DNA of 32,545 nucleotides, from assembly GCA_040756495.1 (NCBI GenBank), contig JBFLYY010000097.1, positions 1-32,545 on the forward strand. Reading direction: 5' to 3'. This document shows, in pieces, positions 6,835 through 26,838 of the stretch. The DNA is from Thermodesulfobacteriota bacterium. Lineage in GTDB: Bacteria > Desulfobacterota > Desulfobulbia > Desulfobulbales > Desulfurivibrionaceae. Position 1 is the stretch's first letter; every line of letters begins with the position of its first letter. The notes under the pieces were generated by a model. The model did no database searches and was not told where the DNA came from. It was given only the letters and a program-made list of their open reading frames with translations. The position numbers were made by a program, and so were the translations under genes.

Positions 6835-6870
6835 AAAAAGGGGCGGAAGGTTAACCCTTCCGCCCCTTTT
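6835..6870. terminator. bidirectional rho-independent terminator between the TPR operon and dsrD
   Basis: AAAAAGGGGCGGAAGG-TTAA-CCCTTCCGCCCCTTTT: about 15 bp of GC-rich stem with one bulged C. An A-run precedes it and a T-run follows, so it reads as hairpin plus U-tract on both strands. It lies between convergent stops at 6774 and 6899. Confidence 0.8.
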
Positions 6871-6898
6871 GCTTACGCAACTTCAGCAAGACCGAGAA

Positions 6899-7138
6899 TC
6901 AGGTACCACGACCCTCTTCGTCCTTGGCACGACCCTTGGCAGCGTACATCGTGGTGCTGCCGGAGGACCAGAAGTCCATCTTGCCTTCCTTGACCAGATC
7001 GTTAGCGGCGTTCTTCACGTCGCGCGGCTTGGCATCCGGATCGCAGGCATAGAAATCCTTCACGTACAGCTGGGGCTTCGGGGATTTCAGCGCCTTCTCC
7101 AGGATCGCCGCCTTCAGTTCTTCCTTGCTCATTGCCAT
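6899..7138 (-). CDS. dsrD: DsrD
   Basis: 79-aa product with the DsrD-type winged-helix signature (...KPRDVKNAANDLVKEGKMDFWSSGSTTMY...). It sits 27 nt downstream of dsrB. Confidence 0.92.
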   Translation of the reverse strand: MAMSKEELKAAILEKALKSPKPQLYVKDFYACDPDAKPRDVKNAANDLVKEGKMDFWSSGSTTMYAAKGRAKDEEGRGT

Positions 7139-7165
7139 AACGAAACTCCTTTCATCAGGTTGTTG

Positions 7166-8296
7166 TTACTTGGTATGGCTGGTGAACTTGAACTGGGTGG
7201 TCGTCCGCCAGGTATCGTAGGCCAGGCGGTAATCGTCGATGCTCTTCTCGGTGAACGGAATCTTGGTCAGCTCGAAGAACTTCTCCCAGCCGATCCGCTC
7301 GGCCCACTCGCCAAGGCGCTCGTACTTGTTGGCGTTCTTGGCCCAGGTCTCAAGGATGTTCTTTACTGCGTCAACAACCTCGGGCCAACGCGGCGGTGTA
7401 TTCGGCAGGAAGGGAATGACCAGCTTGGAGAAGGCCGTACCCTTGCGGCTGTTGGACACCTTGCCGCCCACCAGGATGGCGATACCGTCACCATCCGGAT
7501 CGGCCAGCGGCATCGCCGGGCACATGGTGTAGCAGTTACCGCAGAACATGCAGCGCTCGGCGTTGACCTTGACGGACTTGACGTCCTCGCCGGCGGAGTT
7601 CTTCGCGGTATGCGGCTTGACGGCGCCGAGCGGACAGGCGGAGATGGCCAGCGGCAACTCGCAGACGCCGGTGATGGCGTCGTGATCGACCATCGGCGGC
7701 TTACGATGGATGCCGAGGATCGCGATGTCGGAGCAGTGTACGGCACCGCACATGTTGAGGCAGCAGGCCAGAGCGACCTTGCACTTGGCCGGCAGGTCCA
7801 TGCTGGTGAAGTGATCGAACAGGGCGTCCATGACGGCCTTGACCACGCCGGAGGCGTCGGTGGCCGGGGTATGGCAGTGGATCCAGCCCTGGGTGTGGAC
7901 CACGTTGGAGACAGAGGCACCAGTGCCGCCAACCGGGAAGCGGTTGCCACGGCCCTTGAGGTCTTCCAGCAGGGCCTTGGCCTTGGCCTCGGAATCCGTG
8001 ATGAACTCGATGTTGTTGCGGGTGGTCCAGCGGACATGGCCGTCGCAGAACTTGTCGGCGATATCGCAAGTCTCGCGGAGGAACTCCACGGAGAGGAGAC
8101 GGGCGGAACCAACGCGTACGGTGTAGCACTCGGCGCCGGTCTCGCTCACGTGCTTCAGCACGCCGGGAGCGGTGATCTCATGATAGAGCCACTTGCCACG
8201 ATTCTCGTTGATGACTTTCGGCATCATGGCCTCGTAGTGTGGCGGACCGATATCGGTAATCCTGTCCTTCATCGGATTTTGCGGATCGTAACCCAT
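7166..8296 (-). CDS. dsrB: dissimilatory sulfite reductase beta subunit
   Basis: N-terminus [21 protein letters not shown]. Siroheme/Fe-S Cys clusters ([11 protein letters not shown]...[14 protein letters not shown]) and a ferredoxin insert ([12 protein letters not shown]). Confidence 0.97.
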
Positions 8297-8350
8297 GACA
8301 AACCTCCTTATATGATGATAAGTCCTTGTTGTTGTTCAGTGCGGGCCGGA

Positions 8351-9625
8351 TTACATCGCGTTGCGCTTGCGGAACTCTTTCACGTCGCGCTCCCAGCCAC
8401 CCTCAACCTCCTCCTCACGCCAGAAGACGTAGGGGTTGGAGCGGGGCTCCTTGACGTGCTGCGGAATCGGCTCGACTTCGAGAACGCGGAGGAATACCGG
8501 CAGGCTGATGCGCTGCATGGTCTCACCAAGACGCTCGCGGTTCTTGCCGTTCTCCATCCACCAGTCCCATACCTTCTCGATGATCTCGACCAGGTCTTCG
8601 AACTCGTTCTCGGCATCCAGCTTGATGAAGGGGTAGATCATGGTGGCGAGCTGGGCACCGTCGAGGATCGGGGCCTTGGCGCCCATCATGACGGTGGCGC
8701 CCTGATCGGTGCCGGGGCGCAGGGCCTTCGGCATGACGTTCAGGCAGTGCATGCAGCGGGTGCACTCGGCGTCGTCGATCTTCAGGGTGTCGCCTTCCAT
8801 CCACATGCAACCGGTGGGGCAGAGGGCGATGACCTCCTTCTGGATGTCGAACTTGCCACCCTTCGGGATACCGCCGCCGTTCGGCTTGTTGGCGCCGCTG
8901 ATGTAGTTCTTCACCTCGGCCTGGTTGATGCGGATCGCGTCACGCCAGGTACCGATAACAGCCAGGTCGGAACGGGCGATTGCCGCAACGCAGTCGTTCG
9001 GGCAACCGGAGAACTTGAACTTGAACTTGTAGGGGAAGGCCGGGCGATGGATTTCGTCCTGGTACTTCATGGTCATGGCGTAGCAGACGGCGTCGGTGTC
9101 GTAGCAGGCCCACTCGCAACGGGACTTGCCGATGCAGTTCGCCGGGGTACGCAGGTTGGAGCCGGAACCGCCCAAGTCCCAGTTCAGGTCGTGGGTCAGG
9201 TCGTAGAACAGGGGCTCCAGTTCCTCGGTCCGGGTGCCGAGCAGAACGAGGTCGCCGGTGGAGCCGTGGAAGTTGGTCATGCCGGAACCGCGCTTCTCCC
9301 ACAGATCACACAGCTTGCGCAGGAGTGCGGTGGTGTAGAACTTGCTGGACGGCTGGTTCAGACGGACGGTGTGGAAGTGGGCAACGCCGGGGAACTTGTC
9401 CGGCAGATCGGAGTAACGGCCAACGATACCGCCGCCGTACCCGAAGACGCCGACGATGCCGCCGTGCTTCCAGTGGGTGATTTTGTCCTTGAAAGACTGC
9501 TCCATCTGACCCAGGATGTCCCAACACTGCGGGCTCTTTGCAGCCTGCCGCTTCAGGTCGGAGACAAAGCTCGGCCATGGACCCTTCTCAAGCTCGTCCA
9601 TCATTGGCGTATCGTGCTTCGACAT
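8351..9625 (-). CDS. dsrA: dissimilatory sulfite reductase alpha subunit
   Basis: MSKHDTPMMDELEKGPWPSFVSDLK..., with Cys motifs CIGKSRCEWAC, SGCPNDC and CPTGC...CTRCMHC. Start set at the ATG at 9625, which follows AAGGAGGA. The track ORF extends 14 codons further upstream without an RBS. Confidence 0.97.
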   Translation of the reverse strand: MSKHDTPMMDELEKGPWPSFVSDLKRQAAKSPQCWDILGQMEQSFKDKITHWKHGGIVGVFGYGGGIVGRYSDLPDKFPGVAHFHTVRLNQPSSKFYTTALLRKLCDLWEKRGSGMTNFHGSTGDLVLLGTRTEELEPLFYDLTHDLNWDLGGSGSNLRTPANCIGKSRCEWACYDTDAVCYAMTMKYQDEIHRPAFPYKFKFKFSGCPNDCVAAIARSDLAVIGTWRDAIRINQAEVKNYISGANKPNGGGIPKGGKFDIQKEVIALCPTGCMWMEGDTLKIDDAECTRCMHCLNVMPKALRPGTDQGATVMMGAKAPILDGAQLATMIYPFIKLDAENEFEDLVEIIEKVWDWWMENGKNRERLGETMQRISLPVFLRVLEVEPIPQHVKEPRSNPYVFWREEEVEGGWERDVKEFRKRNAM

Positions 9626-9755
9626 CGTCAAATCCTCCTTGGAAAAGTTATTGGAAAATACCCTCATTCACGCCGCAAAACTCCTTGCCCGGAGCGGGAA
9701 TTGCCCCCCACTACCAGCCGGAGACCGCAGAGTGAGAAAAGAAACCGGTTTTTTC

Positions 9756-9769
9756 TGAATGGAAATTCA
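9756..9769. promoter_or_regulatory. perfect dyad TGAAT-GGAA-ATTCA in the dsrA leader (candidate operator); the extended palindrome TCTGAAT..ATTCAGA spans 9754..9771
   Basis: Read directly from the sequence. It lies 131-144 nt upstream of the dsrA ATG and just downstream of the predicted -10. The same 5-4-5 dyad type occurs upstream of sat at 26694..26707. Confidence 0.4.
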
Positions 9770-9778
9770 GATTCGAGG

Positions 9779-9835
9779 ACAATATACGGCCCTCTCCCCT
9801 TTGTCAACAAAAAACAAAACGAAAAACCGCGACCG
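9779..9835 (-). promoter_or_regulatory. sigma70-like dsrA promoter candidate with T-rich UP-like element
   Basis: Minus strand reads GGTTTTTCGTTTTGTTTTTTG-TTGACA (-35, 9802..9807)-17 nt-TATTGT (9779..9784). An alternative -10 is TATATT with a 15-nt spacer. This implies a leader of about 145 nt. Confidence 0.45.
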
Positions 9836-9965
9836 CTTTCCCTGATTTTTTCCCAGTCCTGACAAGCGATTGCGCCCCATCCGCCGTTGCGGTTTTGCCT
9901 CGCCGACCAGGGCGATTTCGTCTCCCGGCCGGAGCCAATTGACGGTCGCCCTCATGGCTCTGCTG

Positions 9966-10018: not shown

Positions 10019-10351
10019 GTGCCACGCCCGAAAAAACAACGACTCTGCCAGGGTTCCTTCTGCGGCCGGGCCTTCAAACCGACCGGCACGCCGCTCACCT
10101 CGCTCACGCGCATCGGCCTTCAGCGCGACGAGCTGGAGGCCCTGCGGCTCTGCGACATGGAGGGACTTTTTCAGGAGGAGGCGGGGGAACGGATGGGGGT
10201 TTCGCGCGGCACCGTGCAACGGCTGCTCGCCACTGCCAGGCGCAAGGTGGCCACCGCCCTGGTGGAGGGCGCGGCACTCATCATCGGGGAGGAGGAGAAC
10301 ATTGCCCCTCCCTCTGTGGCCGCGCCCCCGGCGGTGGGAAAAAAGGGGTGA
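10019..10351 (+). CDS. DUF134 (UPF0251) family putative DNA-binding protein
   Basis: MPRPKKQRLC...FKPTG N-terminus typical of DUF134. A sigma70-region-4-like HTH follows (LFQEEAGERMGVSRGTVQRLLATARRKV). GTG start with an AGGAG RBS. Confidence 0.8.
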   Translation: MPRPKKQRLCQGSFCGRAFKPTGTPLTSLTRIGLQRDELEALRLCDMEGLFQEEAGERMGVSRGTVQRLLATARRKVATALVEGAALIIGEEENIAPPSVAAPPAVGKKG

Positions 10352-10391
10352 CCCCGCACCGCCGGGCGCGGGGGCAAGAAAAGATCAAGGA

Positions 10392-10799
10392 TCAGACGTG
10401 GCCATGGCCGTGGCAGTTGCCGTGCCCCTGGCACGCCTGGGTTGGCTGCATCATCACCAACTCGTTGCGCACCAGCCCCTCGACCACCGCCCTGACGCTG
10501 CCGAAGGCCTGCTGGGCCGCGAAATAGACCGAGATGCCCGCACTGGCGAAACCATTGAGCGGCCTCGCGCCCATGCCGCCGACCACGATGGCGTGGATAC
10601 CCCTTTCCTGGAGCAGTCCCACCGGCGCCATGCAGCCGCCCGCCTCGTGGGCGACGTTGTTCACGGTTTCGACCGCTGCCACCTGTCCGTTCTCGATATC
10701 GACCAGGGTAAAGAGGTCGCAATGGCCGAAGTGGTCCGACCGGGCCGCCTCGAGCCCGCCCGGCGCGTTGGATGGTACCGCAATCCGTAATGTTGCCAT
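10392..10799 (-). CDS. NifB/NifX-type (dinitrogenase FeMo-cofactor-binding-like domain) protein with His-rich tail
   Basis: MATLRIAVPS...HFGHCDLFTLVDIENGQV...GIHAIVVGGMGARPLNGF matches the Nitro_FeMo-Co fold family as I recall it. The C-terminus reads CQGHGNCHGHGHV. Confidence 0.8.
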   Translation of the reverse strand: MATLRIAVPSNAPGGLEAARSDHFGHCDLFTLVDIENGQVAAVETVNNVAHEAGGCMAPVGLLQERGIHAIVVGGMGARPLNGFASAGISVYFAAQQAFGSVRAVVEGLVRNELVMMQPTQACQGHGNCHGHGHV

Positions 10800-10835
10800 G
10801 AGTTCCGTTCTCCCTCGCTGTCGTTGTCTTCCGGC

Positions 10836-11816
10836 TCACGCCGCCCGGGGCGGCCCGAAAATCCGGTCGGTCAGTTTCACGTACCAGGCCGCGGCCTGCA
10901 CCTGCACAATATAGGAAAGGGCGATCACCAGGGCCGTATCGGCGCCGGCGCTCCCGAAGGCGTTGACCGCGATGGCCAGCGCGATGGAGAGGTTACGCAT
11001 CACCGTGCCATAGACCAGGGCGATGGCGTCCCCCCGCGGGAAGAAGAGCTTGCCCACAATGGTGCTCAGGGCGAAGTTGGCACCGTAGATCACAAGGAGC
11101 GGCACCAGGATCACCCCGAGGATGGCGGGGTTGGCCGCCAGACCTTGCGCCTTCAAGGCAATGGCCACAAAGACGATGCCCAAGACCCCGATGGTCGAAA
11201 GCGACGGAAAACGGGGCGCCCAGATCGTCTTGAAGGCCTCCTGGCCATAGCGCTTCAGAAACCACTGCCGGGTGCAGTAGCCGAGCAGCATGGGCAGGAA
11301 GACGATGACCACGATCTGCCGCGCCACCAGGAGCATGTCCACCTCGACCCTGGCCCCCAACAGCCCCTGCACGTAAAAGGGCGTGGCAATGGAGCCGAGG
11401 GTGAGGCCGATGACGGTCATGTTGATCGCCGCGGCGAGATTCCCCTTGGCAAAGCCGGTCCAGGAGATGGTCATGCCGCTGGTGGGCAACAGGGCCGCGA
11501 GCAAGAGCCCCAGGGCCATGTAGGGCTGATCCGGGAAACAGAACAGGCCCATGCCGTAAGCGAGAAAGGGAATCACGCCGAAGTTGATCGCCTGGGTGGC
11601 CGCCTGCAACCGGACGTTGATCCCCTGCTTGAGATGGGCGATGTTCAAGGTGATCATCATCGGATAGACCATGAGGAAGGTGAGCGGCATGATCCATGCC
11701 TTGAGCCCCTTCACGGTCCCGGGGGCCACGGTCACCCCGAAGAGATAGCCCGCGGCCATCATCATCGGGATGACGACCACCAGCCGCTTGTTGATCTTGA
11801 TGAGAAATTGCCACAT
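10836..11816 (-). CDS. Acr3 / bile-acid:Na+ symporter superfamily permease (Acr3-like, substrate unknown)
   Basis: About 10 hydrophobic segments. LLPTSGMTISWTGFAKGN aligns by eye with the Acr3 TM4 block (..ARCIAMVxVWNxLAKGD). Start set at the ATG at 11816 (GGGGGTGG RBS) rather than the RBS-less GTG at 11858. Confidence 0.8.
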   Translation of the reverse strand: MWQFLIKINKRLVVVIPMMMAAGYLFGVTVAPGTVKGLKAWIMPLTFLMVYPMMITLNIAHLKQGINVRLQAATQAINFGVIPFLAYGMGLFCFPDQPYMALGLLLAALLPTSGMTISWTGFAKGNLAAAINMTVIGLTLGSIATPFYVQGLLGARVEVDMLLVARQIVVIVFLPMLLGYCTRQWFLKRYGQEAFKTIWAPRFPSLSTIGVLGIVFVAIALKAQGLAANPAILGVILVPLLVIYGANFALSTIVGKLFFPRGDAIALVYGTVMRNLSIALAIAVNAFGSAGADTALVIALSYIVQVQAAAWYVKLTDRIFGPPRAA

Positions 11817-11867
11817 GGAACCACCCCCTGTGTTCAGGTTCAACGCGCCGCGCGCCACCGCGCCGGC

Positions 11868-12278
11868 CTATCGGGCCTCTTCGATCATGCCGACGATCTT
11901 CTGGTAGGTCTCGGCCAGGGAGATGGGGAACTGCTCGTCGTCCACCACGGCCCGGATGTTGTCCGCGCTGTAGCGCAAGAAACGGATCTGGGTCTTGCCG
12001 TTTTTGGTGAAGGTCATGATGAACTTGGGCATGAGCACCGCCCGTTCGGGATTGGCGGAAAGGCTCCTGGCCGCCTTTTCCGGCTTGCAGATCTGGATCA
12101 TGTGCAGATCAAAGCCCTCGGCCACCTCGGCGCCGTGCCTGCCGAAGGAGTGCGCCATCTCCATGGTGTTCTCGTTGTGGATGACGAAACCGTACTTTGT
12201 GACCACCTTGCCGAGATCCTCGACAAACTGCCGGTTCGTCTTGCTCGTTTCCGCTGCATAGAGATTGTCACGATTCAT
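11868..12278 (-). CDS. DUF302 domain protein
   Basis: 136-aa product of DUF302 size and pattern (...GFVIHNENTMEMAHSF...FDLHMIQICKPEKAA...MPKFIMTF...). AAGGAG lies 7 nt upstream. It is the first gene of the DUF302-permease-NifX-like operon. Confidence 0.8.
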   Translation of the reverse strand: MNRDNLYAAETSKTNRQFVEDLGKVVTKYGFVIHNENTMEMAHSFGRHGAEVAEGFDLHMIQICKPEKAARSLSANPERAVLMPKFIMTFTKNGKTQIRFLRYSADNIRAVVDDEQFPISLAETYQKIVGMIEEAR

Positions 12279-12339
12279 GGCTGGACTCCTTCAATCGGTG
12301 CAAGGGAATGGAAGAGGGTTGTTTTTTGTGCATATGCCA

Positions 12340-15205: not shown

Positions 15206-17791
15206 TCAGCTCCCCCGGCGGCCACAGACCCTGTTGACCGCCGCGGCGAGATCCCGTTCGAGAATCGGTTTCATGATGAATTCCCGGATGCCGAAGGCCT
15301 TGGCGTTCTGCTCGTTGATGACCTCGCTGAACCCGGTGCAGAGGACAATGGGAATCTCCGGCCGGATGGCCATGACCTGCTGGGCGAATTCGATGCCGGT
15401 CATTTTCGGCATGGTCATGTCGGTGACGATCAGATCGAAGCCTTCGGGCGCGTTGCGGAAGGCCGCCAGGGCCTCCTCGCTGCCGGTGAAGAGCCTCACC
15501 GTGTACCCCAGCCGCTCCAGGACGACGCGTTCGAAATGGGCGATGGACTCCTCGTCGTCCAGCAGCAGGATCCGTTCGCTGCCGCGGGGCATCGGCGCCG
15601 GCGCCTCCTCCTCGGCCGCGGCCGTGGCCGTTTCCACCCTGGGGAAGTAAATCGAACAGGTGGTTCCCTTGCCGACCTCGCTCCGGACGGCGATATGGCC
15701 GTGGTGTTTCTGCACGATCCCGTGCACCACCGAAAGACCGAGACCGGTGCCCCTTCCCCGCTCCTTGGTGGTGAAATAGGGTTCGAAGATCCGCGCCAGC
15801 GTCGCCTGATCCATGCCGCAGCCGGTGTCGCCGACCTCCAGGCAGACATACGCACCAGGCGGCAGCCCCTGGAGTTCGGCCGGGCGGTCCGGGCCAAGCT
15901 CGACCGGCGTCAGGGAGACCCGCAACTCCCCGCCCTTTTCCGCCATGGCATGATAGGAGTTGGTGCAGAGGTTCATCACCACCTGGTGCAGCTGGACCGG
16001 ATCGGCCATGACGACCACCTCGGACGAGGGGATCTGCTGGGTGATGGCGATGCGCGAGGGGATGGTGGAACGCAGCAGCCGCAGTACCTCCTTGACCAGC
16101 AGGGCGATCTGGGTCGGCCGCAGTTCCGAACTGGCCTGGCGACTGAAGGTCAGGATCTGCTTGACCAGATCCCTGGCGCGGGTGCCCGCCTTGAGCACCT
16201 GCTGGAGATTGCCCCAGGCCTCGCTCTCGGGGGCGAGCTGTTTTTTCAGCAGCTCGCCGTAGCCGAGGATGGCCGTGAGGATATTGTTGAAGTCGTGGGC
16301 GATGCCGCCGGCCAGGGTGCCGATGGCCTGGATCTTCTGGGACTGGTAAAGCTGCTCCTTCAGCTCTTCCTGCTCCGTCACGTCGCGGAAGATGCAGCGG
16401 ATGGAAACCACCTCGCCGTCGGCCTGCTTGCAGTTCGCGGAGCCCTCGACACTGACCCTCTTCCCCTCCTTGTTCAGGAAGGCCAGCTTCATGTTCGCCA
16501 CGGCCCCCTCGGCCAGCAGCCGCTTGAAGGTCTGCCGGCAATCGGGCCTGCAATCGTGGGCCATCAGGTCGAGGAAGGAGAGGCCACCGAGTTCGCCGCT
16601 GCCGTAGCCCATCTTCTCGCGCCAGGAACGGTTTGCATACAGAACCTGACCGTCGGGCCGCAGCAGCAGGACGAGGTCGTGGGCATTTTCAAAGAGATCC
16701 CGATAGCGCTCCTCGCTCTCCCGCAGGGCGGCCTCGGACTGCTGGCGCTCGCGCACCTCCTCCTCCAGCAGGCGGCGCCGGGTCACGAGCAGGGTTTCCA
16801 GGCGGCCCAGATAGCCCCAGAAAAGCAGATAAAGGCCCAGCCCCAGCACGGCGAAGGACAGCGCCTGGATCAGGGACAAACGCCGCAGGAGCGCCTTCTT
16901 CGCCGAACAGTCGCGCAGGATGATGAGGTTGCCGACCTCCCGGCCGGAAATCTCCTTGAGCGGCACGATGCCGCCATCGTAAACGATCCTGTCCAGGGTG
17001 GTGCTGAAGGAGGAAAAGGTTGCCTGGCCGGCATGGTGGACCCCCAGCTCTTTCTTGAGGCCATGGGGGATGCGGCGCAGGGTCTGCTCGGAAATCACGT
17101 GCCGCTCGAAGAGGTTCCAGTCGGGAGGGTGCCGCAGCATGACCATCCCCTCTTCCCATTGGGCGCGCTGCACAAAACGCTTGTCGATGACGGAGAGCAT
17201 CTCGATGCCAAGCGTCTCCTTGAGCTGGCGGACGACGTGGGAGATCTCCTCGCCCAGCTCCAGGTAGCCGGCCAGGGTGCCGTCGATGTACCACGGCACC
17301 ACCACCCGCAAGGTAAAGGTTCCCAGCGGCCCCAGCTCCACCCCCCACGAGGCCTGTTGCCTCCTGGCCGCGTCCTCCAGGGTATAACGGTCGATCAGGT
17401 CGCCATGTCGGGATGGCTGGTGCACCCGGAGGAAATTGAGATGATCCGGGCCGTGAAAATAGAAATGGGTGACGCGATACTTGCGCTTGAACTCATCGAA
17501 GCGGGGCTGCGCCCTGCGCAGCAGGGTTTCCCGATCCCGGCCCAGCCACGCCTTCCGCAGTCCCTCGTCCTCCTCGATGCAATCGAGCAGCCCCAGCATG
17601 ACTTCGGCGTCCTTGGCCAGGACGGCCTCATAGACCCGCTGGGCGCCGCGAACGGCATCCTCGGTTTCCCGTACGGACTGCGACCACGTCCACCACTGGA
17701 CGCCTCCCACCGTGATGGCCAGCAAGGCGACAAACGCGATGCCCAGAGGGACGAGGATGGATTTCTTGATCTGCTCGGTCTCGTTCTTCAA
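15206..17791 (-). CDS. hybrid sensor histidine kinase (periplasmic Cache-like sensor, PAS, HisKA, HATPase, receiver)
   Basis: Two TM segments flank a sensor domain of about 270 aa. PAS region (ERYRDLFENAHDLVLLL...), H-box IAHDFNNILTAILGY, G-boxes DTGCGM and GTGLGLS, and a C-terminal receiver (ILLLDDE...DLIVTDMTMPKMTG...KP). TTG start preceded by GGAGGG. Confidence 0.9.
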   Translation of the reverse strand: MKNETEQIKKSILVPLGIAFVALLAITVGGVQWWTWSQSVRETEDAVRGAQRVYEAVLAKDAEVMLGLLDCIEEDEGLRKAWLGRDRETLLRRAQPRFDEFKRKYRVTHFYFHGPDHLNFLRVHQPSRHGDLIDRYTLEDAARRQQASWGVELGPLGTFTLRVVVPWYIDGTLAGYLELGEEISHVVRQLKETLGIEMLSVIDKRFVQRAQWEEGMVMLRHPPDWNLFERHVISEQTLRRIPHGLKKELGVHHAGQATFSSFSTTLDRIVYDGGIVPLKEISGREVGNLIILRDCSAKKALLRRLSLIQALSFAVLGLGLYLLFWGYLGRLETLLVTRRRLLEEEVRERQQSEAALRESEERYRDLFENAHDLVLLLRPDGQVLYANRSWREKMGYGSGELGGLSFLDLMAHDCRPDCRQTFKRLLAEGAVANMKLAFLNKEGKRVSVEGSANCKQADGEVVSIRCIFRDVTEQEELKEQLYQSQKIQAIGTLAGGIAHDFNNILTAILGYGELLKKQLAPESEAWGNLQQVLKAGTRARDLVKQILTFSRQASSELRPTQIALLVKEVLRLLRSTIPSRIAITQQIPSSEVVVMADPVQLHQVVMNLCTNSYHAMAEKGGELRVSLTPVELGPDRPAELQGLPPGAYVCLEVGDTGCGMDQATLARIFEPYFTTKERGRGTGLGLSVVHGIVQKHHGHIAVRSEVGKGTTCSIYFPRVETATAAAEEEAPAPMPRGSERILLLDDEESIAHFERVVLERLGYTVRLFTGSEEALAAFRNAPEGFDLIVTDMTMPKMTGIEFAQQVMAIRPEIPIVLCTGFSEVINEQNAKAFGIREFIMKPILERDLAAAVNRVCGRRGS

Positions 17792-17843
17792 CTACCCTCC
17801 GCTGCAAACGCGGGCTTGGTCGCCCATGGGCCGCCGCCCGCCC

Positions 17844-20501
17844 TCACCCCTTTCGCCTGACGACCCGCACCTTGCGCACCCCGCCGCTCGACAGGGTGCC
17901 GCCCTTGACCCGGCGCACCAGCACCTTCTTCTTTACCGGCGCCTGGCCCGGAACGGACGAAGCGCCAACGGCTGGCGGCAGGTCGCCTTCTCCGGGCAAC
18001 GGCTGCGCGTAGGTGCAACCGGCCCGCGGACAACGCAGGGAAATCTTGCCGGCCAGGTTCTTCTTTTCCACCAGGAAGGGCGAATCGCAGACCTGGCAGG
18101 GGATGGGGTGGGGCCTGGACCAGGCCATGAACTCGCAGTCCGCCTCGGGGCAGACGTAGAAGGGTTTGCCGGTGGGGGTGTGCTTGCTGACGATGTTGCC
18201 GATCTGGCACAAGGGGCAGCGCAGGGAGAGCCCCACCTCCTTGCCGTACGATTCGGAATGGCGGCATTCCGGGTGGCCGGAGCAGAACCAGTACTTGCCG
18301 AAACGGTCCTCCTTGAGCAGGAGCGGCCGGCCGCAATCGGGACAGGGCTTGCTCGGCCCGGCCGTCACCAGCGTGGCGGCGGCCGCCACCGGTTCCGGTT
18401 CGGGCGCGACCTCCCTGGCCGCCTCGGCAAAGAGTTCCTGGCCAACCGGCTCCGGAACCACGTCCAGCGGCGCCGGCTCCAGGTCGAGGGCCGGGGCGAC
18501 GGCCTCCTCCATCACCGGCGGTTCCTCCGCTGCCCCGGCAACCTCCGGCGCCAACGCCATGGCCGGCTCCATGATCTCCGGTTCCGCCCCTTCCTGGGCA
18601 ACCGCCTCCGGGGCCGGAGCCTCCTCCGCCGGCAGGGCCTCCTCCGCCGCCTCTTCCGGCAGCGGCTCCGCCACCGGGGCGGCCGCAACGGCATCTTCCG
18701 CCATGGGCGGTTGTTGGAGCGGCACCGTCGCGGGGGCCACCGGCGCCTCCCCCCCCGGGCTCTTGATGATGCTGCGCGAGACCCTGGTCCGGGGCCGGGG
18801 CGCCAGCGGCACCTTGACCTTGACCAGCACGTTGCCCTGCATCATCATGGTCTGATCGAACTGCTGGAGGGCGAAGGCCAGGGGCTTGCGGCTTTCGATC
18901 ACCTCGCCCACGGTCTGCTCGAAATAGGCCGCGAGGTTGATGCCCTTCATGGAGGGAAAGGCCTTGTTCATGACGTTGACGAGGGTGGCGGTGTTCTCCC
19001 GGCAACGCCAGGTGCCGTCCGCCATCAGGGCCAGATAGCCGCCATCGAGCATGCGTTGCAGCATGGCGATGGCGGTGGTGTCCAGGGACAGGGAGAAATC
19101 GGCCAGATCGTTGGCCAGCCCCTCGAAGGTGTAATACTCCGGCGGAAAACCCACGGTCTGCTCGGGAATGATCTGGATGTTGCGCACCTCCTGGCCGTGG
19201 GCGAGTCGGGCCAGCGGGGATGGCGCCAGCAGTTCCCGGAACTGCGGCCCCTGGTAGGCGGCCAGGAACCCGGGCTGCTGCACGACCCGGCCGCTGGCCC
19301 GGAACAGACAGCTTTCCCCGGCCTGCATCACCACCTCCCGCGACACTCCCTCGGCGTCCCGCATCTGGCTGGCCAGGGCCCGGGAGTGAACGAGGGCATA
19401 GATCTGGTGCGCCTCCGGCCCCAGGGTGCCGGCAAGATTGGCCGGGGTCCATTCCGGCCGCAGGGGAAGGAGCACGTCGTTCGCTTCGGCCTGGCAACCG
19501 CCGCCGGCCAGGGCCTCCGGCCCGAAATGCCGTTCCACCTCGCGGCGCAGGCGGGCATAGACCGGTTGCGGATCGCCGGTGCCGCGCGGGCTCGCCGCGC
19601 TGATCAGCCCCACCGTTTCGCCATTGACGATCACTCCCTCGTAGAGTTCCCGCACCGCGCGCAACACCTGCGCCGGCTGGAGCCCATGGGCAAGATAGGC
19701 CTCGTGCAGCAACTCCAGCAGGCGGAAAGGCGCCGGCGGCCCGATCCGCACTTCCTCCTCCGCCACCTCGCCGACCAGGAAGGGCTTGCCGCGGAAGAGC
19801 CCCACCACCTCCTTGCCCTCAAGGGCATCCCGCACGTAGCCATCGTCGGTGATGCCGTAGGCCTCTTCGAGCCGGGCATCGAATTCGCCCTCCTCCGAGG
19901 CCAGGCGCACCCGCACCTGCCACTTGAGCGGCGGGGTAAAGGCCCGGATCTCCGTCTCGCGTTCCGCCAGGAGAAAGAGGATGGCCAGGGTATCGCCGGT
20001 GAGCGGCAGCCCCTGCGGCCCGGTGGTGGTTCCCAGCAACCGTTTGAGGTGGCGGCTCAGGTGGGCGCTGAAGAGCATGCGCAGGTGGTAGGCCGCGGCC
20101 GCGTCGCTGTCCACCGTCTCCACCAGGCGGAAGGATTCCCGCAGTTCGTCGCGGCTCAGGCCGAAGAGGTGGAGCCGCCGCGCCCCCTGCAGACCACTGG
20201 TTTCGGCCTGCAGATATTCGCTGATCAGCCAGGCCCAGTACTCCCCGCGCTGATCGCCCTCAAAGGCGAGATAAAGGGTGGCGGCGCCGGGGGGCGGCAG
20301 TTTGGCAAAGAAGTCGTGCCCGCCCTCCGCCACGGCAAAGGTGAACCTGGGCGGCTCCCGCTTGAGCGGATCCTTGGGCGGCAGGAGCGTCGCCTTGACC
20401 GGCGCCGCGGTCACCACCAGAACCTCCACCTCGCCGCCCAGCTGCGCCGCGACCGTGCGGGCCTTCTGCTCGGAATCAACAATAATCACGTCTTTCGCCA
20501 T
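17844..20501 (-). CDS. type IA DNA topoisomerase (TopA)-like protein lacking the canonical active-site tyrosine; three C4 zinc ribbons and a basic tail
   Basis: TOPRIM-like N-terminus, TopA-like blocks (PPAPF, ELYEGV, IYALVHSRALASQM, FRASG..GFL). An acidic Pro/Ala/Glu linker, then CPDCG..C..C, CPLC..CP..C and CQVC..CP..C ribbons and a KKKVLVRRVK.. tail. The active-site block reads GLISAASPRG instead of GLITYMRTDS. GGAGG lies 5 nt upstream of the ATG. Confidence 0.9.
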   Translation of the reverse strand: MAKDVIIVDSEQKARTVAAQLGGEVEVLVVTAAPVKATLLPPKDPLKREPPRFTFAVAEGGHDFFAKLPPPGAATLYLAFEGDQRGEYWAWLISEYLQAETSGLQGARRLHLFGLSRDELRESFRLVETVDSDAAAAYHLRMLFSAHLSRHLKRLLGTTTGPQGLPLTGDTLAILFLLAERETEIRAFTPPLKWQVRVRLASEEGEFDARLEEAYGITDDGYVRDALEGKEVVGLFRGKPFLVGEVAEEEVRIGPPAPFRLLELLHEAYLAHGLQPAQVLRAVRELYEGVIVNGETVGLISAASPRGTGDPQPVYARLRREVERHFGPEALAGGGCQAEANDVLLPLRPEWTPANLAGTLGPEAHQIYALVHSRALASQMRDAEGVSREVVMQAGESCLFRASGRVVQQPGFLAAYQGPQFRELLAPSPLARLAHGQEVRNIQIIPEQTVGFPPEYYTFEGLANDLADFSLSLDTTAIAMLQRMLDGGYLALMADGTWRCRENTATLVNVMNKAFPSMKGINLAAYFEQTVGEVIESRKPLAFALQQFDQTMMMQGNVLVKVKVPLAPRPRTRVSRSIIKSPGGEAPVAPATVPLQQPPMAEDAVAAAPVAEPLPEEAAEEALPAEEAPAPEAVAQEGAEPEIMEPAMALAPEVAGAAEEPPVMEEAVAPALDLEPAPLDVVPEPVGQELFAEAAREVAPEPEPVAAAATLVTAGPSKPCPDCGRPLLLKEDRFGKYWFCSGHPECRHSESYGKEVGLSLRCPLCQIGNIVSKHTPTGKPFYVCPEADCEFMAWSRPHPIPCQVCDSPFLVEKKNLAGKISLRCPRAGCTYAQPLPGEGDLPPAVGASSVPGQAPVKKKVLVRRVKGGTLSSGGVRKVRVVRRKG

Positions 20502-20697
20502 GCCGCCTCCAAAACGCGCCGCGCACCGTGTCGCGGGAGCGTCAAAAATCTAATTTTTCTCACATGATATAGAATTTTTTTCGCCACCGTCCAGCAGAGA
20601 GTGCATTCTGCCCCGCTTTTTTCCGCCCCAATCGCGGCCGCGGCCCTGCCATTTTCCGCGGAACCCTTCAAGGAAATGGCCGGACCGTTCGACATGG

Positions 20698-24832: not shown

Positions 24833-25273
24833 ATGGCCACCACCACACCCCGCTCCCGGACGCAGAAAGACACCCTCACCGATGCCGGCGTGCGCATCGG
24901 CAAGGCCCTGGCCCGCTCCTCGGCCAAGGTCGAGCAGACCGGCCGCAAGGCCCAGCAGGCAGCCAAACGGCTGGTCGAGGCCACGATGGGCAAGGGCAAG
25001 AAGAGCGCGGCTCCGAGAAGAGCGAAGAGCACCGCGGAATCGCCCCTCAAGCCGAACTCCGCCATGACGGTGGAGGCGCTCATCGGCTTTCTGGCCGGCG
25101 ACATCTACAACTACCTCGCGGAAAAGAAGGAGGTGGTTACGGCCGACCTCTTCCGCGCCATGAAACACCGCAACAACTCCCAGGCGTACATCTGCGCCGC
25201 CCTGGGCTGGCTGGCCCGCGAGTACAAGATCCGCTTCCTCGACGACGGCGAAAAGATCGCCCTGGTCGAATAG
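24833..25273 (+). CDS. hypothetical protein: Lys/Arg/Ala-rich N-terminal tail plus C-terminal winged-helix-like domain (DUF2582-like, tentative)
   Basis: Good RBS and GC3 bias. The N-terminal 75 aa or so are basic and low-complexity (..GRKAQQAAKRL..GKGKKSAAPRRAKS..). The C-terminal 70 aa or so (VEALIGFLAGDIYNYLAEKKEV...ALGWLAREYKIRF) look wHTH-like from memory of the family. Confidence 0.65.
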   Translation: MATTTPRSRTQKDTLTDAGVRIGKALARSSAKVEQTGRKAQQAAKRLVEATMGKGKKSAAPRRAKSTAESPLKPNSAMTVEALIGFLAGDIYNYLAEKKEVVTADLFRAMKHRNNSQAYICAALGWLAREYKIRFLDDGEKIALVE

Positions 25274-25359: not shown

Positions 25360-26637
25360 TTACATCTTGGCGCCGGAAGCGGCACCCTGCATCTTGACCT
25401 CAACCTTCTCGGTCAGATTCTGGTAGTACTCCTTCAGGATCACGAGAACCTCGTCGCGACCGAAATGCGGCACGATCTCGGCACCCTCGGAAAGGGCCTT
25501 GCGCAGCTTGGTGCCGGAGAGGATAACGCGATCTTCCTTGCTGTGCGGGCAGGTACGGAGAGAGGCCATGCCGTCGCACTTGTGGCAGTAGAAGGTCCAG
25601 TCGATCTTGAGCGGCTTGCACTGCAGGGCCTTGCCCGGGTCGGCCGGGGTCGGGATGCGGTCGAAGATCTCCTGGGCCTCGAACAGGCCGTAGAAGTCGC
25701 CAACGCCGGCATGGTCGCGGCCGATGATCATCTTGGTGATGCCGTAGTTCTGACGGAAGGTGGCATGGAGCAGGGCCTCGCGCGGACCTGCGTAGCGCAT
25801 GTCCAGCGGGTAACCGGCCTGGATGACGTTGTCCTTCACGAAGTAGTGCTCAACCAGGCAGTCGATGGCCTTGACGCGAACGTTGGCCGGGATATCGCCC
25901 TTCTTCAGGTTGCCGATCAGGGAGTGGATCAGAACGCCGTCGCATACCTCGATGGCGATCTTGGCCAGGAACTCGTGGGAGCGGTGCATCGGGTTGCGGA
26001 GCTGCAGGGCGGCGATGTCCTTCCAGCCGCGCTCCTCGAACATGGCGCGGGTCTCGGCCGGGGTCAGGTAGACGCCCTTGTACTCGGTCGGGTACTCGCC
26101 CTGATTCAGAACCTTCACCGGGCCGGCCAGGTTCACTTCCTTCTGGTTCATGACCATCTGCACGCCCGGGTGATCCTTCAGCGCGATCTCCCAGAACTTG
26201 TCGTCGGCAGACTCCTCGCCCTTGCCCTTGAAGACCTTCTCGCATTCCCACTTCTTGTCGGCCTCGGACATCTCGTACTTCTCGGAGACCTTCATGGTGG
26301 CGTAGACCACGCCGTCACGCTCCAGGGCGATCTCGTCGCCAACCTTGATCGCGTCGGCGTCGGCCTTGGAGACGTCCAGGGTGATGGGTACCGGCCAGAA
26401 GGTGCCGTCGGCCATGGTGAAGTTCTCGCAAACGCCCTTCCAGTCGGCCTTCTTCATGAAGCCATCGAGCGGAGAGAAACCGCCGATGCCCATCATGATG
26501 CAGTCGCCCTTGGCGCGAGCGCTGATCTGAATCTTCTTCAGGCCCTTGGCCTTCTCGATCTCTGCCTCCAGCTCGTTGCCGTGCAGCAGGCAGCAAACCA
26601 GACCCTTGCCTCCGTGGGGAGCTACCAACTTTGACAT
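25360..26637 (-). CDS. sat: sulfate adenylyltransferase (ATP sulfurylase)
   Basis: [10 protein letters not shown]..., [13 protein letters not shown] (HxxH) and IGRDHAGVG motifs. About 425 aa with no APS-kinase domain. AGGAGA lies 6 nt upstream of the ATG. Confidence 0.96.
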
Positions 26638-26693: not shown

Positions 26694-26707
26694 TGAACGC
26701 CAATTCA
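26694..26707. promoter_or_regulatory. dyad TGAAC-GCCA-ATTCA in the sat upstream region (candidate operator or activator site)
   Basis: Read directly from the sequence. It lies 57-70 nt upstream of the sat ATG, with the same 5-4-5 geometry and half-sites as the dsrA-leader dyad at 9756..9769. Confidence 0.4.
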
Positions 26708-26728: not shown

Positions 26729-26757
26729 GGTATACGCAAGGGCCGGGGAATTGTCAA
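26729..26757 (-). promoter_or_regulatory. sigma70-like sat promoter candidate (TTGACA-17 nt-TATACC)
   Basis: On the minus strand: TTGACA (26752..26757), 17-nt spacer, TATACC (26729..26734). This implies a leader of about 85 nt. Confidence 0.5.
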
Positions 26758-26814: not shown

Positions 26815-26838
26815 AAAAAAACCGCCGCGTTGCGCGGC
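26815..26838 (-). terminator. second (weaker) terminator after the flagellar operon
   Basis: Minus strand: 6-bp GC stem (26824..26829 / 26833..26838) with a 3-nt loop, followed by GG and TTTTTTT. Confidence 0.5.

Follow-up and report, generated by a model that had tools for sequence, protein, structure and literature searches.

Some members of the Desulfobulbales reduce sulfate, others disproportionate sulfur, and still others operate the same enzymes in the reverse direction, and the control of dsr and sat in this order is therefore a real question. To our knowledge, little is known about the transcriptional regulation of dissimilatory sulfate reduction, and almost nothing outside Desulfovibrio, where Rex has been implicated. 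In Desulfovibrio, Rex represses sat, both sat and dsrABD have been predicted or shown to be under its control, and the predicted regulon comprises sat, dsrABD, apsAB and qmoABC (PMC4045070). One palindromic operator that overlaps or follows the core promoter is common to sat and dsrABD there and works by repressor logic (PMC4045070, PMC545781); the same sites had earlier been assigned to HcpR (PMC545781). CRP, FNR and HcpR sites have a TGA-N6-TCA core (TGTGA-N6-TCACA, TTGAT-N4-ATCAA), and the HcpR motifs are TTGTGAnnnnnnTCACAA for Desulfovibrio and, for Desulfotalea, which belongs to the Desulfobulbales, the FNR-type ATTTGACCNNGGTCAAAT (PMC545781). SmtB/ArsR proteins, which repress as winged-helix dimers until a small ligand releases them, use 12-2-12 operators that sit around the transcription start, such as AATACCTGAACA-GA-TGTTCAAGTATT and TACAATTGAATA-GT-TGTTCAATTGTT in Anabaena (PMC8790569). 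The Klebsiella ARG box TGAATTTTTATTCA contains a TGAAT-N4-ATTCA core (PMC12219000).

Here we describe a dyad, TGAAT-N4-RTTCA, that lies upstream of both dsrA and sat in the window, by which we mean the whole 32.5-kb stretch of DNA analysed. We consider it likely, from its pattern of conservation, that this dyad is the operator of a dimeric sequence-specific regulator co-controlling dsrABD and sat throughout the Desulfobulbales. The window forms part of contig JBMONR010000061.1 (assembly GCA_049323475.1), from a metagenome-assembled genome. The DsrA protein encoded in the window is 95-97% identical to those of Thermodesulfobacteriota MAGs and 83-87% identical to those of Desulfurivibrio, and on the strength of these identities the window organism is placed as a Desulfurivibrio relative within the Desulfobulbales and not as a Desulfovibrio-type deltaproteobacterium.

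The dyad in the dsrA and sat promoter regions

Upstream of dsrA lies a perfect palindrome, TCTGAAT-ttcc-ATTCAGA (TCTGAATttccATTCAGA), whose TGAAT-N4-ATTCA core occupies positions 9756-9769. The initial annotation had placed a perfect dyad at 9755..9770; the dyad is perfect and in place, but its true extent is longer, with a 7-4-7 arrangement (Table 1). On the coding strand the order is TTGACA, 17 nt, TATTGT, tcctcgaa and then the palindrome, and a T-rich run at about 9809-9826 precedes the -35 hexamer. Upstream of sat the corresponding order is TTGACA, 17 nt, TATACC, 21 nt and TGAAT-tggc-GTTCA (TGAATtggcGTTCA, coding strand, 26707-26694). The sat -10 hexamer was missed by the promoter scan because the scan rule demands T at position 6. 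In relatives, the -10 hexamer reads TATTGT, TATGCT or TAAGTT at dsrA and TATAAT, TATACC or TATAGG at sat. Both of the TTGACA-type promoters described at the outset were thus found, and the operator-like positions given for the dyad centres, roughly +10 at dsrA and +21 at sat, were recomputed as near +10 and +22 from the predicted starts.

Table 1. Positions of the putative operators, predicted promoter elements and genes in the window
Feature	Position	Strand	Basis and remarks
Putative dsrA operator	9754..9771	-	Palindrome, conserved in 51/53 Desulfobulbales dsrA loci; centre ~ +10 from predicted start
dsrA promoter -35, TTGACA	9802..9807	-	Promoter scan; block TTTTTTGTTGACAAA kept in nearly all Desulfobulbales loci
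dsrA promoter -10, TATTGT	9779..9784	-	Promoter scan; 17-nt spacer to -35
dsrABD operon	6899..9625	-	dsrA 8351-9625, dsrB 7166-8296, dsrD 6899-7138; Pfam and gene calls
Putative sat operator	26694..26707	-	Kept as TGAAT-N4-GTTCA in 48/70 sat upstream regions; centre ~ +22 from predicted start
sat promoter -35, TTGACA	26752..26757	-	Within conserved block TTTTTCCTTGACAAT; kept across sat loci
sat promoter -10, TATACC	26729..26734	-	Read by hand; 17-nt spacer to -35
sat (sulfate adenylyltransferase)	25360..26637	-	Pfam ATP-sulfurylase and PUA_2; downstream of the second putative operator
DUF134 gene (sigma-70 region-4-like helix-turn-helix)	10019-10351		Divergent from dsrA
DUF2582 winged-helix gene	24833-25273	+	Convergent with sat

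Pfam assigned DsrA and DsrB to NIR_SIR and also confirmed DsrD. The dsrA 5' leader is about 147 nt long in the window (9626-9772), and the distance from dyad to start codon ranges from 114 to 286 nt in the dsrA relatives (L002-L054). An RNA-seq contig over dsrA of a Desulfurivibrio relative ends inside the dyad, which is suggestive of a transcription start just upstream; the other dsrA RNA-seq contigs of Desulfurivibrio relatives, all of them assembled contigs, are either broken up or extend across the promoter. For one Desulfurivibrio relative, RNA-seq contigs covered the leader at a depth 10-50x below that of the coding region; contig depth is a poor measure, but the difference hints that the leader may be processed or that a second start exists.

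Several minor features were noted along the same DNA. A perfect 10-bp palindrome, AAACCGGTTT (9741-9750), lies 4 nt from the dsrA dyad; it was rejected as a conserved element and is probably due to chance, because L002 and L003, the closest relatives, do not retain it. Between flaG and the sat promoter, a G+C-rich hairpin with a T run behind it (26824-26838, minus strand) is likely a terminator that shields sat from the flagellar operon upstream. Antisense to dsrAB, the hybrid histidine kinase gene and the topoisomerase-like gene there are very long open reading frames (6869-9862, 15536-17860 and 17712-20567, all on the plus strand); they have no Pfam matches and were dismissed as artefacts of high G+C.

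To judge how rare the dyad is, the exact pattern TGAAYNNNNATTCA was counted in the 32.5 kb and in dinucleotide shuffles. It occurred only at the dsrA and sat sites, with 0.05 occurrences expected, and none of 100 shuffles attained the observed count, in agreement with the earlier remark that no further copy with 5-4-5 spacing exists in the window. When one mismatch was allowed, still just the dsrA and sat sites were recovered, and with two mismatches the number of matches was at background level (20 found, 20.9 expected).

Conservation and anatomy across the Desulfobulbales

We compared 80 dsrA loci, drawn from a set in which each species is represented by a single genome, and 80 metagenomic sat loci, whose taxonomy was inferred from similarity alone. 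Exact matches to TGAAY-N4-RTTCA were sought within 450 nt upstream of dsrA, and the expectation was taken from dinucleotide shuffles of the same regions. The dyad was found upstream of dsrA in 51 of the 53 Desulfobulbales loci (59 sites, 0.17 expected), and upstream of sat in 48 of 70 regions (0.2 expected); the loci share ancestry, so that these site counts are not independent and overstate the number of independent events. The remaining two Desulfobulbales dsrA loci carry one-mismatch versions, and about 20 sat loci have a degenerate dyad or none. Named genera with the dsrA site are Desulfurivibrio, Desulfobulbus, Desulfopila, Desulfofustis and Desulfosediminicola, and the sat promoter of Thiovibrio sp. 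JS02 carries the dyad as well. Among the 25 dsrA loci of other orders (Desulfomonilaceae, Syntrophales, Desulfobacterales), a single one had a dyad upstream, and no conserved dyad was found at the same place in their dsrA promoters. A lack of conservation upstream of dsrA and sat orthologues had been named in the initial annotation as grounds for giving up the motif; the outcome was the opposite, and the sites moreover keep a fixed distance from the -35 hexamer.

The dyad is also specific to these two genes. In the dsrA loci, 60 sites fell within 24 kb of upstream DNA as against 6 in the other 852 kb, and three of those 6 are Desulfurivibrio sat promoters, sat being located 5 kb from dsrA there. 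In the sat loci, the other exact or near-exact matches are dsrA promoters, apart from a coding-region look-alike within sat. Almost no dyads were found in 1.4 Mb of flanking DNA outside the dsrA and sat promoters. The look-alike, TGAAAAAGTnTTCA (L107, L111, L132, L134, L142, L143, L145 and L156), lies at about +395 in the sat coding region and fits the loose pattern TGAA-N6-TTCA in many loci; it was rejected as a regulatory site, being conserved as codons (WECEKVF) and not as a site. With regard to dsrC, protein searches seeded with a Desulfovibrio-type DsrC and with the Desulfobacterales DsrC of L079 returned only Desulfovibrionales and Desulfobacterales relatives, and among the fetched loci the gene was present only in non-Desulfobulbales ones.

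The position of the dyad was measured from the -35 hexamer, which is independent of the dyad itself. The proximal dsrA dyad starts 36-40 nt past the first T of TTGACA (45 loci) and the sat dyad 39-51 nt past it (48 loci), which, with usual promoter geometry, puts the predicted dsrA centres at about +8 to +11 and those of sat at about +10 to +22. The two genes share a conserved predicted promoter, TTGACA-17-TATxxT, with the dyad just downstream, and judging from these loci the dyad keeps its place in the promoter throughout the order Desulfobulbales. All 10 core positions were matched in 42 of the 47 proximal dsrA sites anchored on the -35 hexamer. Variation is free in the four central bases and in the flanks and nearly absent from the half-sites; such divergence of spacers and flanks indicates that the core is under selection.

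A second, distal dyad is present in 14 dsrA loci (about a quarter), where it starts 41-44 nt before the first T of TTGACA, with its centre at about -72, and is usually followed by TTT. Both copies occur in L014, L016, L019, L020, L024, L028, L030 and L039, and loci with the distal copy only fall within L040-L051; in six Desulfofustis/Desulfopila-like loci the distal dyad is intact and the proximal one decayed. Lying upstream of the -35 hexamer, the distal dyads are outside the transcript from that promoter. The two dsrA copies are 78-80 bp apart, and this distance of about 7.5 helical turns is unfavourable for simple looping.

The dyad has a strand bias at position 10 of its 14 positions (e.g. 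26698 in the window), where the downstream half reads either ATTCA or GTTCA, with G in 61 of 120 sites anchored on the -35 hexamer; sat sites and distal dsrA sites as a rule have G. In the upstream half, TGAAT is nearly universal and TGAAC is almost never seen. Proximal dsrA, distal dsrA and sat dyads all share this bias, which is at odds with a perfectly symmetric homodimer.

Alternative explanations of the dyad

The pattern was defined only after it had been seen, and promoters are A/T-rich relative to the rest of the G+C-rich window, so a mere chance likeness of the two sites in A/T-rich promoter DNA had to be considered. With 0.05 occurrences expected in the window, and with about 100 loci carrying the dyad at the homologous position against about 0.2 expected per gene set, the probability of such a coincidence is negligible; conservation across the dsrA and sat loci has already refuted it, and the claim that the shared dyad is non-random was borne out by the window shuffles and the relatives alike. 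Another possibility is that the dyad acts as RNA, forming a 5'-end stem-loop on the dsrA and sat mRNAs that stabilises them or binds an RNA-binding regulator. Proximal sites fall within the first ~25 nt of the predicted transcripts, and dsrA and sat are very highly expressed, so that leader stability could matter. The sole frequent core change, from A to G on the 3' arm opposite U, retains a U-G pair, and the mirror change giving a C-A mismatch was seen once and C-G twice (in ~110 sites, the putative hairpin pairs at the variable position are U-A 51, U-G 57, C-G 2 and C-A 1). Structural RNAs, however, show compensatory changes, and RNA-binding proteins usually read the loop. In the dyad an invariant stem encloses a variable loop, the reverse of usual RNA-protein recognition or of a structural hairpin; essentially no covariation was found in the stem across ~110 sites, in which only one pair varies; the bare 5-bp hairpin is marginal, with a median of -1.7 to -1.9 kcal/mol; and Rfam gave no family match anywhere in the window. 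The compensatory changes, stable fold and curated family by which a structured 5'-leader RNA is recognised are therefore all lacking. Since the 14 distal dsrA dyads, ~40 nt upstream of the -35 hexamer and untranscribed, have the same strand bias, we regard an RNA element as a minor and unlikely rival. Invariant arms around an unconstrained centre would be expected of two recognition helices that sit in successive major grooves.

If a protein binds the dyad, it might be a known global regulator, either Rex or a CRP/FNR-family protein such as HcpR. CRP/FNR sites are likewise 5-4-5 palindromes, dual regulators of this family use both upstream and downstream positions, as the dyad does (~ -72 and downstream), and a CRP/FNR-type (HcpR-like) assignment had been suggested initially. 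This assignment could not be upheld, as the dyad reads TGA-N8-TCA in all ~110 sites against TGA-N6-TCA in the family, and the HcpR motif of Desulfotalea, from the same order, differs from it. No CRP/FNR gene was found among the window gene products or the conserved neighbours of dsrA and sat. Rex is brought to mind by the predicted Rex sites of Desulfovibrio sat and dsrABD, formerly given to HcpR, by the repression of sat in that genus (PMC4045070, PMC545781), and by the window sat site itself, GTGAAT-N4-GTTCAC, which contains the Rex-like GTGAA and TTCAC. In the Rex operator TTGTGAA-N4-TTCACAA, however, TGAA and TTCA are separated by 4 nt, whereas the gap in cTGAAT-N4-RTTCA is 6 nt, and a fixed dimer geometry seldom tolerates a 2-bp change in spacing. 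The G before TGAAT is not conserved either, position -1 being C in 47 of 60 dsrA sites and G in 3, and the Rex regulon belongs to the Desulfovibrionales while the dyad belongs to the Desulfobulbales. With these differences, Rex or HcpR is a highly improbable owner of the site. In core sequence and geometry the dyad is identical to the Klebsiella box TGAATTTTTATTCA (PMC12219000), which raises the question whether it is an ARG box, the site of the arginine repressor ArgR (enterobacterial core TGAAT-W4-ATTCA). The likeness ends at the core: the dyad centre is not A/T-rich (A+T 0.33-0.75 per position, with GAGC, TGGC and CCGT common), dyads are single or 78-80 bp apart and not in tandem pairs 2-3 bp apart, and the targets are dsrA and sat, not arginine genes. 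The sole arg gene on the contig, argJ, has no dyad, which is a weak test since argJ directly follows secA. We give the ARG box a very slim chance indeed.

A putative common regulator of dsrABD and sat

An operator bound by a dimeric regulator common to dsrABD and sat remains our preferred reading. Its action is most likely repression, because the putative operator begins just downstream of the predicted transcription start. Both promoters appear to be strong and sigma-70-type, with a T-rich upstream run, TTGACA, a 17-nt spacer and TATxxT, and a dimer on an operator 1-16 nt downstream of the predicted start would block RNA polymerase binding or promoter escape. The signal for release could plausibly be the redox state or a sulfur species. 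The regulator may also act from upstream, in view of the distal dsrA copies, which are better preserved in the Desulfofustis/Desulfopila-like group; the copy at about -72 in some lineages would then provide an auxiliary operator or allow activation of the class-I type. The dsrAB and sat genes are normally among the most highly expressed, a point that counts against this reading. Common repressor control of the two units has a known analogue in Rex, which acts on sat and dsrABD of Desulfovibrio (PMC4045070).

As for the protein family, the TGAAY-N4-RTTCA core has the same geometry as the inner core of the SmtB/ArsR 12-2-12 operators (PMC8790569), and the dyad centres, at +8 to +22 from the predicted starts, are likewise located around the transcription start. 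The dyad does not conserve the inner A and T of those operators (14-mer positions 6 and 9), and of the outer arms (AATAxx...xxTATT) there is no trace, since no conservation was seen at -6 to -2 or +15 to +19. The targets also differ, being metal resistance genes for SmtB/ArsR and respiratory genes for the dyad, and no ArsR-type gene was found among the conserved neighbours of dsrA or sat. The SmtB/ArsR family includes persulfide-sensing members, e.g. SqrR and BigR. Because the dyad core resembles the inner part of the 12-2-12 operators, an ArsR-like winged-helix dimer is our best guess for the candidate regulator. A more ambitious proposal, which we put forward tentatively and hold to be rather doubtful, is a dedicated master regulator that would govern the dissimilatory sulfur pathway throughout the order. 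This could be a winged-helix protein, ArsR-like or of an uncharacterised family, that senses sulfur or redox state and, through one operator, would turn dsrABD and sat on and off together, perhaps along with apr, qmo and dsrC. If this were true, the master regulator could share in the choice among sulfate reduction, sulfur disproportionation and reverse (oxidative) operation.

The dyad is a familiar kind of thing, a putative transcription-factor operator defining a small regulon. In the literature searched we found no description of it, no work joining Desulfobulbales, dsrA and sat with a promoter palindrome, and nothing relevant on TGAAT/ATTCA operators generally; it is thus a real, apparently undescribed, order-wide regulon element. 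What sets it apart is the depth of its conservation and the fact that it links the first and last steps of dissimilatory sulfate reduction order-wide. Its 14-18 bp could serve as bait to capture the regulator by DNA affinity, its motif could be used to reconstruct the regulon genome-wide, and reporter assays could build on defined point mutations. Annotation would gain as well, because across the order the dyad points to the true dsrA and sat promoters and to the long 5' leaders of both genes.

The neighbourhoods of the two promoters were inspected for regulator candidates. The conserved neighbours of dsrA are the housekeeping genes dnaG, rpoD, rpe and pgi, and those of sat are flagellar genes and aroB. 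Two further genes in the window encode candidates, and they are to be taken as nothing beyond that. The DUF134 gene is followed on the opposite strand by genes for a Nitro_FeMo-Co (NifX-like) protein, an SBF-family transporter and a DUF302 protein (10019-12283 in all), and it adjoins dsrA in 8 of 55 loci, always together with the Nitro_FeMo-Co gene. Its product is a possible local regulator; as the regulator of the dyad it is unsupported, as it stands beside dsrA only in the window's own clade and its own promoter has no dyad. The DUF2582 gene, which adjoins sat in 17 of 57 sat loci, again only in the window's own clade, is likewise unsupported as the source of the dyad regulator, its distribution being apparently narrower than that of the dyad and its own promoter lacking one. 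PDB sequence searches with the DUF134 and DUF2582 proteins gave nothing useful, and profile comparison revealed no homology between DUF2582 and DsrD (probability 3.8%). A database of 5.8 billion proteins contained only 52 DUF2582 relatives, which belong to the Desulfurivibrionaceae/Thiovibrio group. The protein has a long lysine/alanine-rich N-terminal tail, and in this group it is fast-evolving (33-45% identity) yet syntenic between aroB and sat.
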